This document shows, one piece after another, positions 35,630 through 41,222 of a DNA stretch of 64,000 nucleotides. This stretch comes from an uncultured Bacilli bacterium (GTDB taxonomy: Bacteria > Bacillota_I > Bacilli_A > RF39 > UBA660). The notes under the pieces were generated by a model. That model had not been told where the DNA came from. It was given only the letters and a program-made list of their open reading frames with translations, and ran no database searches. Both the position numbers and the translations under genes were made by a program. Within the stretch, counting starts at the first letter, position 1. Every line of letters starts with the position of its first letter. The stretch covers positions 92,602 to 156,601 of the forward strand of contig CAJUMA010000003.1 of NCBI GenBank assembly GCA_910587065.1. Reading direction: 5' to 3'.

Positions 35630-36919
35630 ATGGAAGCAAATAATGGCGGAACAAAAATAATTGATGGAGTAGTTTATCAAGCTGTATCACCAGCTAGTGT
35701 ACCTACAACTGCTGAATCACAAATAGTCATACAACCAAAAGTAGAAGTTGGAGAAAGTCCAAATGGAGAAATAGAGTTTAATTTTGAAAGAGTAGATATG
35801 CAAGATCCTTTTTCAATTCTTTCATATGGAAATGATGTTCAAAAAGAGATATGTGCAATTTTAGATAGTACTGCTCAAATGACAGTATGTAGTGAAAGAA
35901 CATTCTTAAATGATGATATGCTTGCTAAAGTTGTATCATTTGAAGAATCTCTTGATGATGCTAAAAAGAGACAAGCACAAGAAGAAGGCCTTTTAAAAAG
36001 ACTTGCAAAAAGCATTTTATTAAAAGCTAATAATCAACAAGTAAAAAAAGAAGAAGAAATGAAAACATATCAAGGAAGATATAAGGATTATACAGAAAAC
36101 CTTAATTTAGTTGCTGAAAATGTTTCACAAATAGCAAGAGATGCTTTATCAGATATTCAATTAAGAAAAGAAATTACTAAACAATTAACACCAATAATTG
36201 CAAAACTTGATGCAATGGTTAAGGCTGGTAGAGAAGATCGTGAAAAATATGATTTAGAAACTTTAGCAATCGGACAAGAAGATCAAAGTCCTGATACTCA
36301 AGCCATAGTTTCATATCGTACTCAACAATCAAATGTCTTTTTAAATCAATTAAATGGACTTGAAAAAGCAGTAGTATTATATAAAGGACAAATTCAACAA
36401 TATCAAATTCAACAAAATAATTCGATGATTGCTGTTCAACAAGCCCATGACTTTGTAACAAATCAAAAATCAGTCTTACAATCTCTTGCTAGTGTTCAAA
36501 TATTAAATAGGCAAGATACTGAAAGATTAAACTCTTTAGCTAGCGTTTCAGAAGCAGCAAACATTGCGATAACTCAAGGAGCTGCTCAAACAGCTGAAAA
36601 TGCACGTTTAGCAAGCGAACTTGCTTTAAATGGTGGTTTCACAATGGACTCAATAGAGAGTGTCATGAACTCAATTAATGAAGGTGTTTCAATTATTGCA
36701 TCAACTAAAGAATTATTATTAAAGAGAAATCATGCTGAAGAAGAAGGATTAGCTAGAATTCAAGATCAACTAGAAGCAAATAAACAAAATATATTAAGTT
36801 TAATAGAAGATCAATCATCTGCCACTTTAGCTTTAGAAGAAAAAGAAAATAAAGGTGGATATCAAAGAAGAGTATCTTCGTCATTCCCATCAATCAATCG
36901 TCCAAAAATAGGTAGATAA
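35630..36919 (+). CDS. TelA-like (toxic-anion-resistance family) coiled-coil protein
   Basis: All-helical, Gln-rich coiled coil with no TM. N-terminal block VDMQDPFSILSYGNDVQKEICAILDSTAQM resembles the conserved TelA d.p..i..fG..aQ..i block. Family assignment is from memory only. Confidence 0.45.
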   Translation: MEANNGGTKIIDGVVYQAVSPASVPTTAESQIVIQPKVEVGESPNGEIEFNFERVDMQDPFSILSYGNDVQKEICAILDSTAQMTVCSERTFLNDDMLAKVVSFEESLDDAKKRQAQEEGLLKRLAKSILLKANNQQVKKEEEMKTYQGRYKDYTENLNLVAENVSQIARDALSDIQLRKEITKQLTPIIAKLDAMVKAGREDREKYDLETLAIGQEDQSPDTQAIVSYRTQQSNVFLNQLNGLEKAVVLYKGQIQQYQIQQNNSMIAVQQAHDFVTNQKSVLQSLASVQILNRQDTERLNSLASVSEAANIAITQGAAQTAENARLASELALNGGFTMDSIESVMNSINEGVSIIASTKELLLKRNHAEEEGLARIQDQLEANKQNILSLIEDQSSATLALEEKENKGGYQRRVSSSFPSINRPKIGR

Positions 36920-36921
36920 AA

Positions 36922-38145
36922 ATGGATGAATTAGATGTAAAAATATCTAAAATAAAAAATCTTAATCTAATATATTTATATAATATTAATGATTCACTGT
37001 CTTTACCTGATGAAAGAAAGTATTTAGCTCTTAAAGTGATGTATGATAATAATCAAGAATATATAAGTATAGATTTTAAAGATGAGCATTTTGGCAGTTT
37101 AATTAAGAAAGTTCTAGACTGTTACAATCAAGAGAAGGATAATAGAAATATTATCCTTTTAGGGGATTTGACTAATGAGTTATTCGCGAATTCAAAATCT
37201 TTTGTTGCAAATATTTTAAGTTCTAAAAATGAAGCAACTCCTATATTTAAAACCCAAAATGAATTAATTAGAGCATACTTACCATTTTTAAAAGAAGTTT
37301 TAGAGAGTATTATTAAACACATTCGAAAAATAGAAGGTGTAACTATAGAAAGTCTTGATGGCTATAATAAAAAGTTTATAGTGAATATTTCTTTATCAGG
37401 AATGAAAAGACAGTTTCCTATAATTTTATATTTTAGTAAACAAAATATTTTAAATTTTAAAATAGGAGCTATTCTTGATACTACAATTGGAGTCTCAGGT
37501 ACAATTGAAACTAATTTAGGTACAGTTTTAACCTGTTGGCACGCTGCATATTTAAATAGTTCTGGTTATATTTATTATAATGCTTTGGAAGGAATAGTTG
37601 AAAAAAGTGTAAGTATCAACAATAATCCAATTTATCATTCAACAGAAATTGATGCTGTAAGTGATAAAGATATTTCTTTAATTAACTTCTATCTAGAATT
37701 ATTTAAAATAGGTATTAAAGGTGATGTTATTAAAACAAGCGATCATAACTTTATTATTAGTTCTAAAAATATTTCATCTAATGAAGATGCAGATATGATG
37801 GAACTTTCAAGTGCTCAAGTTTTCGTTCAAGATAATGAAGTTACAATAAAATATCGTATATCTAGAATACTTAATAAATTAAAACATTTAGTTAGTATTC
37901 CACTAGATGATGAAGAATATATAGTTTCTTTAAAAAAGAAAACTATAGATCAAAAGACTTATCTTTTAGCAGAATCCTCTGATAAAACTCATGAATATGT
38001 AATATTTGAGGTTGATGATATTGACTTACATCATCCATTTGAAATTAAGGCAAAAGAAATTGTTAATGGTACTATAAAATATTCAGATGACATAAAAATG
38101 CGATTAAGAGCAGTAAAACAGGAATCCCAAAAAGGAGATGAATAG
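36922..38145 (+). CDS. hypothetical protein (407 aa), second gene of the operon
   Basis: Starts 2 nt after the TelA-like stop. No recognisable motif. Confidence 0.5.
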   Translation: MDELDVKISKIKNLNLIYLYNINDSLSLPDERKYLALKVMYDNNQEYISIDFKDEHFGSLIKKVLDCYNQEKDNRNIILLGDLTNELFANSKSFVANILSSKNEATPIFKTQNELIRAYLPFLKEVLESIIKHIRKIEGVTIESLDGYNKKFIVNISLSGMKRQFPIILYFSKQNILNFKIGAILDTTIGVSGTIETNLGTVLTCWHAAYLNSSGYIYYNALEGIVEKSVSINNNPIYHSTEIDAVSDKDISLINFYLELFKIGIKGDVIKTSDHNFIISSKNISSNEDADMMELSSAQVFVQDNEVTIKYRISRILNKLKHLVSIPLDDEEYIVSLKKKTIDQKTYLLAESSDKTHEYVIFEVDDIDLHHPFEIKAKEIVNGTIKYSDDIKMRLRAVKQESQKGDE

Positions 38146-40317: not shown

Positions 40318-40322
40318 AGTTA

Positions 40323-41222
40323 ATGAGAAAAACAACTACGGAATTTGCTGGTCGTAAAGTATATAAGGTTAGATTTTCAGGAATTTATGATTTATACGAG
40401 TATTTAAAATCAAATCCTCCCGTTAACCCAATATTTACTTCTGAAAACCAAGCATTTAAAGGTGAACAAGCAAGTTTAACTGGTTCAAAAGACTTTGCTG
40501 GTGAGCCTCTTGATGTAGCTATTGAGTATTTATTAAGAGGATATAAAAAAGATTTTGAAAGTTTTGTAAACACAAATAAAAAATTAACAAGTGGTTTAAG
40601 AGTTCCAGAAATATATGAAGAAAAACGTAGCCCATACGTTGGAACACCAATTTCTTCCCTTGTTGCAGCTGGTGTTTTTGATTGTCGCGTAGTAAATGAA
40701 CAGGTAGAGGAAGTTATTGCCAAAAATATTTATTATAATTTATCTTATCCCCATTATACTAGGTGGGATCAAGTAAGAAATCGCGGAATTGCGACACTAG
40801 CTATGATTCAAGCTCTTGAAGAGAGAGATGTTTTTGTAAATTTCAAAGCCTTTGAATTATCAAGATGTAATGATGAAATATTTCATTTCTCAATCGATTT
40901 AAAAAAACCAGGGGAAAAAATAAACTTACAAAAGATATACTTTTTGATGGTTGCTAAAGAGTTTTTAAGAAGAGTTTTATTTCGTGTATTAGAGTCATCC
41001 GATGTTGAAGATTATGAATGGACAGATGGTTATGGAGAGTCTTTTGTCCAAAGAGAATGTGAAGAATATTTTAAGACAAAGAAAAATGATATTGTTATTA
41101 CACGTCCCCAAGATCTTTCTATAACAGGTGATGACATTTATGAAGATACAATTAATATGTATGAAAAATTAGGATTAGACAAGGAATTAAATGTAAACAA
41201 GTTAAGAAAATTAGGTCATTAG
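40323..41222 (+). CDS. hypothetical protein (299 aa), partner of the AAA_5 ATPase
   Basis: 5-nt gap from the ATPase gene. No recognisable vWA MIDAS motif and no clear nuclease motif. Confidence 0.5.
   Translation: MRKTTTEFAGRKVYKVRFSGIYDLYEYLKSNPPVNPIFTSENQAFKGEQASLTGSKDFAGEPLDVAIEYLLRGYKKDFESFVNTNKKLTSGLRVPEIYEEKRSPYVGTPISSLVAAGVFDCRVVNEQVEEVIAKNIYYNLSYPHYTRWDQVRNRGIATLAMIQALEERDVFVNFKAFELSRCNDEIFHFSIDLKKPGEKINLQKIYFLMVAKEFLRRVLFRVLESSDVEDYEWTDGYGESFVQRECEEYFKTKKNDIVITRPQDLSITGDDIYEDTINMYEKLGLDKELNVNKLRKLGH

Follow-up and report, generated by a model that had tools for sequence, protein, structure and literature searches.

The four plus-strand ORFs (g1 to g4) at positions 35630-41222 of the window, the 64,000-nt stretch of DNA from an uncultured gut Bacilli bacterium analysed here, belong to a gene module that is conserved across unrelated genomic contexts. 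We infer, with a probability of roughly 45%, that they encode a motor-adaptor-client machine which acts on TelA near the membrane and supports tolerance of envelope or toxic-anion stress. This would be a four-protein cytoplasmic machine with, as its core, a CobS/MoxR-class motor (g3) and a cognate MIDAS-less vWA-like adaptor (g4). In the literature searched, the four-gene module appears previously undescribed: as the preliminary description had supposed, no report was found that ties TelA to this AAA_5 and DUF7192 pair, and no mention of DUF7192 was found; older surveys of Ter systems may hold a similar neighbourhood.

The close packing of the genes noted from the outset was borne out by the ORF listing and the junction sequences, with gaps of 2, 0 and 5 nt for g1/g2, g2/g3 and g3/g4, respectively. 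This stop/start spacing is compatible with translational coupling, and Shine-Dalgarno-like motifs precede g3 (GGAGA) and g4 (AAAGGG) as well as g1 (Table 1). The promoter-like site, about 75 nt 5' of g1, is the best-scoring of the region, as a consensus match only. The terminator-like hairpin would represent the end of the upstream gene and the 5' boundary of the four-gene unit. The flanks correspond to those first reported: upstream are genes for an XRE HTH protein that has a single TM-like segment and for a protein whose N-terminus contains a hydrophobic segment, and DUF1292 genes (weak matches) lie downstream. Searches of NCBIfam with the four proteins returned no match.

Table 1. Genes, putative signals and protein features of the operon (nucleotide positions are those of the window; residues are those of the protein named)
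Feature	Nucleotides	Residues	Strand	Description
Terminator-like hairpin	35476..35503		+	12-pair stem, then T run
Promoter-like site	35528..35555		+	sigma-70-like TAGACA, 16 nt spacer, TATAAT, TG extension; 11/12 matches
Shine-Dalgarno-like AAGGAAGGAAG	35610..35620		+	9 nt 5' of g1 ATG, read from sequence
g1	35630-36919		+	TelA-family protein, divergent, 429 aa
g2	36922-38145		+	407 aa, rare uncharacterised family
g2 N-terminal alpha/beta domain		1-135	+	most conserved part; motif YNQEKDNRNIILLGDL at aa 68-83
g2 antiparallel beta-meander		140-365	+	long
g3	38146-40317		+	723 aa, helical arm + AAA_5 ATPase
g3 N-terminal helical domain	38146..38787	1-214	+	conserved YYVDDRAL (aa 153-160) and EDKKxNGIYDI (aa 194-204), from orthologue alignment
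g3 amphipathic helical region	38788..39195	215-350	+	3.66-residue (11/3) hydrophobic periodicity, apolipoprotein-like
g3 predicted AAA+ ATPase module	39433..40317	430-723	+	AAA_5/CobS/MoxR class
g3 Walker A	39556-39579	471-478	+	GPSGTGKT
g3 Walker B	39745-39750	534-535	+	DE (D534/E535), within DEMDNSNAKAATIL block, aa 534-547
g3 sensor-1	within 39877-39888	580	+	N580
g3 Arg-finger	within 39946-39960	603	+	R603
g4	40323-41222		+	299 aa, DUF7192 protein, predicted vWA-like Rossmannoid fold
g4 degenerate MIDAS site	40737-40751	139-143	+	NLSYP; family consensus NLAYP
g4 conserved helix		213-224	+	EFLRRxLFRVLE

The comparison set consisted of 16 distinct bacterial loci whose flanks differ and are unrelated. 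The genes g2, g3 and g4 are found together and adjacent in all 16, and TelA accompanies them in 15, as expected of the conserved module proposed at first. The arrangement is far beyond chance, given that these genes recur in 16 distinct loci among unrelated flanks. TelA is displaced to the 3' end in Lachnospiraceae (L005/L006, one of the 16 distinct loci) and a short second TelA ORF lies 3' of g4 in two loci (L004 and L024); such rearrangement without separation of the genes speaks for a functional link. A divergent lineage (L017/L018) keeps g2-g3-g4 without TelA, which is thus not a strict requirement. The preliminary description had allowed for a first ORF with no TelA match and for genes lying separately in relatives; given a conserved, co-occurring module, neither is the case. 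A candidate fifth gene downstream (~220-240 aa) was rejected because the ORFs found there are unrelated between loci outside the window's clade. The idea that the module diverges unusually fast compared with its flanks was also unsupported, the other non-essential neighbours (XRE, secreted-protein and DUF1292 genes) being equally divergent (32-58%); for PBP2B and Clp ATPase, related MAGs share 86-90% identity.

The product of g3 is a predicted CobS/MoxR-class ATPase with intact catalytic motifs. As initially described, a helical N-terminal region, an arm of about 430 aa, is followed by an AAA_5 domain (33.8 bits against Pfam AAA_5, cut-off 22), and the motifs quoted at that stage (the Walker A sequence and the DEMDNSNAKAATIL block in g3, and DMQDPFSILSYGNDVQKEI, the TelA N-terminal block, at aa 56-74 of g1) are all present. 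Residues G471-K477, D534/E535, N580 and R603 are invariant in 15 g3 orthologues, and the catalytic residues align with D141/E142, N186 and R210 of CobS (residues per bioRxiv 10.64898/2026.07.21.739949). In profile searches g3 matched phrog_249 (E 1.4e-29; annotated 'porphyrin biosynthesis') and, in the PDB, CobS (9ujv, E 7e-5) and also CbbQ (6l1q). The McrB-like alternative raised in the preliminary description was rejected because CobS and CbbQ, with phrog_249, are closest and neither McrC nor a nuclease partner is present, g4 being vWA-like.

The N-terminal helical domain of g3 (aa 1-214) belongs to no Pfam family, and a second TelA in the N-terminal region was ruled out (hhalign probability 0.5%). 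The hydrophobic periodicity of the amphipathic region that follows was beaten in none of 2000 shuffles; one g3 orthologue has a Pfam Apolipoprotein match. In a PDB profile search this region matched apolipoproteins A-I and A-IV at E ~1e-3, and the weakness of that similarity speaks against a membrane role. An 11/3 periodicity is seen in soluble coiled coils too.

In Pfam, g4 matches DUF7192 only and no VWA family, and phmmer and profile searches against the PDB returned nothing relevant and no sequence-level link to vWA. The earlier statement that the 299-aa protein has no vWA signature therefore stands for its sequence but not for its predicted structure, which is vWA-like with a degenerate MIDAS. 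The best matches of that structure are the vWA domain of NorD and the MIDAS domain of midasin, which points to a vWA-like alpha/beta Rossmannoid fold, with likeness at the fold level only. The MIDAS motif DxSxS...T...D is not preserved, with no Asp or Ser conserved at its position across 47 sequences; one viral homologue carries DISYS at this position. No extra domain fused to g4 was detected, and g4 adjoins a g3-type motor in all loci. An ordinary MoxR-vWA pair, which the preliminary description had set against a new kind of module, is thus partly what is found: since the predicted fold of g4 best matches vWA/MIDAS partners of MoxR-class motors, the g3-g4 core appears to be a cryptic AAA_5-vWA pair.

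The motor and adaptor also occur in phages, where cobST-like pairs are widespread among tailed members (PMC8651126). Phage-type loci (L019, L020, L021) have only a short AAA_5 gene and DUF7192; the same combination is frequent among Staphylococcus Kayvirus genomes, with 236 phage records, and is found on a phage-like contig with D5 primase and portal genes. The Kayvirus pair consists of the same two families, adjacent and in identical order, but its motor, at 372-464 aa, is a short form without the N-terminal arm, and neither TelA nor g2 is present. The phage loci having no more than this, arm, g2 and TelA appear together. Such occurrences would suit two genes of phage origin, domesticated or remnant (as a moron or a piece of a decaying prophage), that lack a host function of their own and stand beside TelA by chance. 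This is most improbable, and conservation largely refutes it: the flanks of the operon in the window are free of phage genes, the four ORFs are intact and retain 30-60% identity in many genomes, the catalytic residues being invariant, and the arm, g2 and TelA are specific to the bacterial form and missing from phages.

Among known systems, the operon resembles the CobS-CobT pair of aerobic cobaltochelatase in its motor, through the alignment of catalytic residues and the phrog_249 match, and in having a vWA-fold adaptor encoded next door. However, the adaptor is here a MIDAS-less DUF7192 protein, not CobT, CobN is lacking, the motor bears the extra ~430-aa N-terminal arm, and TelA and g2 have been added. 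The same motor-adaptor-client logic is seen in NorQ-NorD, CbbQ-CbbO, RavA-ViaA and midasin, of which NorD and midasin best match g4 and CbbQ matches g3. The adaptors of these systems have a functional MIDAS and serve NorB, Rubisco, fumarate reductase and pre-60S particles as clients, whereas in the present operon the MIDAS has degenerated, and TelA and the novel beta-rich g2 are the linked candidate clients. A MoxR/CobS-type maturation chaperone, for metal or cofactor insertion into, or activation of, an enzyme encoded elsewhere, with the link to TelA and g2 secondary, would be in keeping with CobS and CbbQ as the motor's nearest solved relatives, with NorD, from an iron-insertion system, as the best fold match of g4, and with the phrog_249 annotation. 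Such a role is nevertheless improbable: none of the 16 loci encodes CobN, NorB, Rubisco or another candidate metalloenzyme client, the metal-binding MIDAS motif is lost in g4, and it is TelA and g2 to which the pair is tightly linked, even through rearrangement.

The MoxR-vWA-centric ternary conflict systems also combine an AAA+ and vWA core with a conserved third protein particular to each system, and in them some vWA domains are likewise without MIDAS aspartates (Kaur, Burroughs, Iyer and Aravind 2020, PMC7159879). It is possible, though doubtful, that the operon is an anti-phage or conflict system of this type, with the AAA+-vWA pair as a threshold switch, g2 as the third component (sensor or effector) and TelA as a membrane-acting effector or protector. 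TelA has no occurrence in that survey. VMAP, iSTAND, FtsH and beta-propeller third components were not detected here, no effector domain such as a nuclease, protease or TIR domain is recognisable, nothing is fused to the C-terminus of the vWA protein, and the hosts are unicellular gut Bacillota. In PADLOC-DB v2 there was no genuine match for any of the four proteins, the sole hit (g3 against HerA, E 0.003) being a spurious coiled-coil match. Moreover, most loci sit among housekeeping genes and not in defence islands, and within the window's clade the operon is syntenic and apparently inherited vertically.

The protein encoded by g1 was described as TelA-like, helical and Gln-rich, and this proved correct. 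It covers positions 6-328 of the 332 of Pfam PF05816 with a borderline score (30.5 bits, cut-off 30), but of 12 module orthologues, 9 have a TelA match (the best at E 1.5e-105), and comparison of the g1 group with the classical TelAs of L004/L005 by hhalign gave a probability of 94.7% (E 6.2e-8, 296 aligned columns). On these profile comparisons, g1 is a real though divergent TelA-family member. It is predicted to be all-helical with heptad periodicity (hydrophobic period 3.5 residues), contains 9.1% Gln and ends in a basic tail (aa 413-429). TelA proteins are widespread in bacteria, plasmids and phages, and affect tolerance to tellurite, nisin and cell-wall antibiotics. To our knowledge, the family has been familiar since the 1990s through resistance phenotypes only.

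A TelA-family protein is the feature that the operon shares with the Ter/TelA determinants (TelA/KlaB, Listeria Lmo1967, and B. subtilis YaaN with XpaC). TerY and TerF are vWA proteins of Ter determinants. However, TerB, TerC, TerD, TerY and XpaC are absent from the called genes of the compared loci, and TerB, TerC, TerD and TerY from the window flanks. An association of TelA with vWA proteins exists in Ter clusters (PMC7824862), but the vWA-like protein of the operon belongs to DUF7192 and is paired with an AAA+ motor, and TelA is highly divergent.

As between envelope stress and phage defence, the context leans to the envelope side. This lean stems from the phenotypes of Listeria TelA, from proposed TelA sub-membrane structures and from frequent envelope-gene neighbours. 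Listeria TelA (Lmo1967) has envelope-antibiotic and tellurite phenotypes, contributes to resistance to nisin and cell-wall antibiotics, and is regulated by LiaR (PMC11765107; PMC12791056); it has been proposed that TelA builds sub-membrane structures (PMC7824862). Neighbours of the operon often include PBP2B, MurJ/Polysacc_synt, FemAB, YkuD, MscL, Amidase_3 and ABC-2 transporters. These neighbours are not conserved between loci and could be a coincidence in small genomes. The amphipathic periodicity of g3 aa 215-350 and the weak apolipoprotein matches suggest membrane proximity; as all four proteins lack TM segments, membrane association would be indirect at best.

Under the motor-adaptor-client reading, the motor-adaptor pair would be ancient and stands alone in phages. 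In some gut Bacillota the motor may have gained its N-terminal arm, a helical domain followed by the apolipoprotein-like stretch, and in the same lineages the pair would have been fixed beside g2 and the divergent TelA. On the model of CobS-CobT-CobN and NorQ-NorD-NorB, a g3 hexamer might remodel a client by ATP hydrolysis, with g4, and perhaps g2 too, as transmitters; a precedent for motor-adaptor-effector organisation is given by the CobSTN cryo-EM preprint (bioRxiv 10.64898/2026.07.21.739949). By gene linkage alone, the likeliest client would be TelA, a helical protein thought to make sub-membrane assemblies. The four proteins would then interact physically, and the system could put together, take apart or relocate TelA on the inner membrane face under cell-envelope or toxic-anion stress. 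A bolder version, unlikely as it stands, is that TelA forms a helical scaffold close to the membrane and that the dedicated AAA+ motor controls how far this scaffold is assembled, as a bacterial counterpart of the ESCRT-III/Vps4 filament-plus-disassemblase; motor and TelA would be coupled by the vWA protein without MIDAS and by g2, which might be a split CobT-like adaptor.

An operon tying TelA to an ATP-driven motor and its adaptor suggests that TelA is an actively remodelled client or scaffold and, if true, the ESCRT-III/Vps4-like scaffold would provide the first mechanistic handle on TelA. The g2 protein is the basis for a new protein family that is found only alongside the g3-type motor. 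The family is rare, at 140 clusters out of 1.84 billion representatives, and g2 has neither a Pfam match nor a specific match to a known fold. DUF7192 and PHROG 1909 gain a predicted fold and a proposed role: as vWA adaptors without MIDAS, they would serve a CobS-like motor. Both families occur in hundreds of Staphylococcus Kayvirus genomes, and some of these phages serve in phage therapy.

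Four adjacent genes, g1 (a divergent TelA), g2 (a rare beta-rich protein), g3 (an AAA_5 ATPase with a helical arm) and g4 (DUF7192, PF23822), lie exactly where the preliminary description had placed four open reading frames, as ORF calling of the window confirmed. They are separated by gaps of 2, 0 and 5 nt, with Shine-Dalgarno-like motifs legible at the junctions, and the stop/start spacing is compatible with translational coupling. There is no canonical terminator 3' of g4. A TATAAT-like element sits in the 73-nt spacer that separates g4 from the next gene, suggesting that the downstream genes have a separate promoter.

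Features of the window
Feature	Position	Strand	Remarks
T-box leader	24346-24546	+	Rfam RF00230, 105.9 bits
181-aa ORF	24543-25088		no Pfam match
Class I aminoacyl-tRNA synthetase	25088-27607		Val-tRNA-synthetase C-terminal arm; T-box leader lies 5'
XRE-HTH protein and neighbour	33566-35450	+	one TM-like segment; N-terminal hydrophobic (signal-like) segment in neighbour
Terminator-like hairpin	35476-35503		closes gene upstream of g1
Promoter-like site	35528-35555		region's best, about 75 nt 5' of g1; 11/12 matches plus TG extension
g1	35630-36919	+	429 aa
Basic tail of g1	36866-36916		aa 413-429
g2	36922-38145	+	407 aa
g3	38146-40317	+	723 aa
g4	40323-41222	+	299 aa
DUF1292 trio	41296-42641	+	two weak-DUF1292 paralogues (81, 133 aa) bracket a family-less 223-aa protein
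First terminator-like site beyond g4	42637-42654
PBP2B	42709-44616
Clp-type ATPase	46118-48214
Giant ORF	55186-62355	+	2389 aa; largest gene of window

The four genes do co-occur as a conserved module, a point that the preliminary description had left to be checked. Among 16 distinct bacterial loci (the window, L001, L002, L004, L005, L007, L009-L012, L015-L017 and L022-L024), g2, g3 and g4 are adjacent in every one and TelA is present in 15, being absent from the divergent L017/L018 lineage. The flanks vary nearly everywhere (RelA/PBP2B, ClpX/LysR, RecD2/NusA-IF2, ScpAB, polysaccharide flippase/FemAB, MscL, thioredoxin). TelA lies 3' of g4 rather than 5' of g2 in the Lachnospiraceae loci L005/L006, and in one module subfamily (L004, 8927-9472; L024, 6022-6570) DUF7192 is followed by a short second TelA ORF of 181-182 aa that matches just the central part of the profile (positions 120-234). 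Phage-type loci comprise 236 phage records (235 from Staphylococcus and 1 from Enterococcus, with L020 as the one inspected), the IMG/VR contig L019 and the phage-like contig L021 with D5 primase and portal genes; they carry just a short AAA_5 protein (372-464 aa) adjoining DUF7192, without TelA or g2. Because phages carry this pair alone, the comparison of loci identifies it as the old core, and the g3 arm, g2 and TelA as a bacterial elaboration that travels together.

The TelA-family reading of g1 holds. Its score against Pfam TelA is marginal (30.5 bits, cut-off 30) and covers nearly the whole profile; 9 of 12 orthologues from equivalent loci match (best E 1.5e-105), and a profile built from ten g1-type proteins aligns over 296 columns with classical TelAs, at a probability of 94.7%. 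By these sequence matches g1 is a genuine though divergent TelA. Its hydrophobic period is 3.5 residues. The C-terminus of module-type TelAs is a basic tail, probably disordered (RRVSSSFPSINRPKIGR and ...TTKKGKK are examples), that is absent from the classical TelAs of L004 and L005 (alignment A4). This tail might bind lipid or give the AAA+ pore a handle.

Pfam recognises an AAA_5 domain in g3, whose C-terminal 300 aa match phrog_249, a phage CobS-like family (E 1.4e-29); the nearest solved relatives found with a 15-sequence profile are CobS and CbbQ. The alignment of 15 shows no variation at Walker A, Walker B (D534/E535), sensor-1 (N580) or the arginine finger (R603), and the catalytic residues line up with those defined experimentally in CobS (bioRxiv 10.64898/2026.07.21.739949). 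The N-terminal 430 aa have no Pfam assignment. They comprise a conserved helical domain (residues 1-214) and a segment (215-350) with a hydrophobic period of 3.66 residues (11/3), exceeded in 0 of 2000 shuffles, that weakly matches apolipoprotein A-I/A-IV. Profile comparison ruled out the N-terminal region of g3 as a TelA homologue.

The preliminary description saw no vWA signature in the 299-aa g4. This stands for sequence, PDB searches having returned no match, but not for the predicted structure, which is vWA-like. At the end of strand 132-139, where vWA domains have the DxSxS of the metal-binding MIDAS motif, g4 reads NLSYP (family consensus NLAYP), and no MIDAS residue is conserved at the site among 47 homologues. 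A viral homologue reads DISYS there, which is suggestive, though a single case. On its model, g4 best fits the description of a vWA-like adaptor without MIDAS that can be recognised by structure only. In Staphylococcus phage 184DA (L020; OR885926.1, 130577-132552), the two Kayvirus genes, for AAA_5 (372 aa) and for DUF7192 (281 aa; PF23822, 296 bits), each carry the label 'hypothetical protein'; the vWA-like assignment would carry over to this pair.

No match to g2 was found in Pfam, PHROGs, PADLOC or NCBIfam, nor to ten distant members in Pfam. It has 23 close homologues, and an exhaustive profile search of 1.84 billion representatives yielded a family of just 140 clusters, nearly all of them standalone proteins 380-430 aa long. 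The model (pLDDT 80.8) combines a small N-terminal alpha/beta domain with a long antiparallel beta-meander, and fold searches returned only generic beta-barrel or single-layer-sheet matches. The N-terminal order of elements (helix, three strands, helices) is that described for the M48C-like N-domain of CobT; should this match be real, g2 and g4 would form a split CobT-like adaptor.

The window has a uniform composition (G+C about 28%), and its housekeeping genes (T-box-controlled ValRS, class II aaRS, RelA/SpoT, PBP2B, Hsp20, Clp ATPase) mark it as chromosomal. 'Bacilli bacterium' MAGs include identical proteins in their annotation. The 181-aa ORF may be a false call or an artefact of the leader region, and the giant ORF is wholly unannotated: Pfam yields no family for it at E <= 1e-5. 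The XRE-HTH pair, which could represent a membrane-tethered regulator and a secreted partner, also precedes the module in a related Erysipelotrichales MAG (L001, 327-2247). The DUF1292 trio is syntenic 3' of the module in L001, L009 and L010 and missing at other module loci. Between these three and the window, PBP2B and the Clp-type ATPase share 86-90% identity, and the figure for the module proteins and the remaining accessory neighbours is only 32-59%, an unusually wide spread for one syntenic block. L009 (CAZWST010000005.1) and L010 (CAYWFZ010000021.1) are labelled 'uncultured Muribaculaceae' (Bacteroidota), yet are syntenic with this Bacilli-type window (PBP2B 88-91% identical); these bins are probably contaminated or mislabelled.

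In MoxR/CobS-class systems a vWA adaptor links the hexameric motor to its client; in CobSTN structures the adaptor shaft enters the ring and the client CobN is held on its far side, and NorQ-NorD-NorB is thought to act similarly (bioRxiv 10.64898/2026.07.21.739949). This well-known AAA_5-vWA pairing has a cryptic member in the g3-g4 core, and that part of the module is therefore ordinary. The module lacks the defining features of MoxR-vWA ternary systems, whose main survey (PMC7159879) does not mention TelA, and those of Ter clusters, McrBC and CobNST. The fixed link of the core with TelA and the g2 family, the long motor arm and the structural assignment of DUF7192 were not found in the searched literature, which did not include the 2012 Ter-system paper.

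Read most economically, g3 would act as motor with g4 as its adaptor, and the client or co-adaptor would be TelA, g2 or both. TelA has been linked to nisin, cell-wall-antibiotic and tellurite tolerance, and in Listeria it is under LiaR regulation (PMC11765107, PMC12791056); Aravind and colleagues proposed sub-membrane structures for it (PMC7824862). No transmembrane segment is predicted in g1-g4. PADLOC matches none of the module proteins, and most module loci lie outside defence islands. The amphipathic character of the g3 arm, with its 11/3 periodicity, and the frequent presence of envelope genes nearby tilt the proposed function towards envelope stress and away from phage defence. We infer this model, envelope-stress lean included, throughout, and give it slightly less than an even chance (about 0.45). 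The main value of the module is that it offers a concrete, testable set of partners for TelA.
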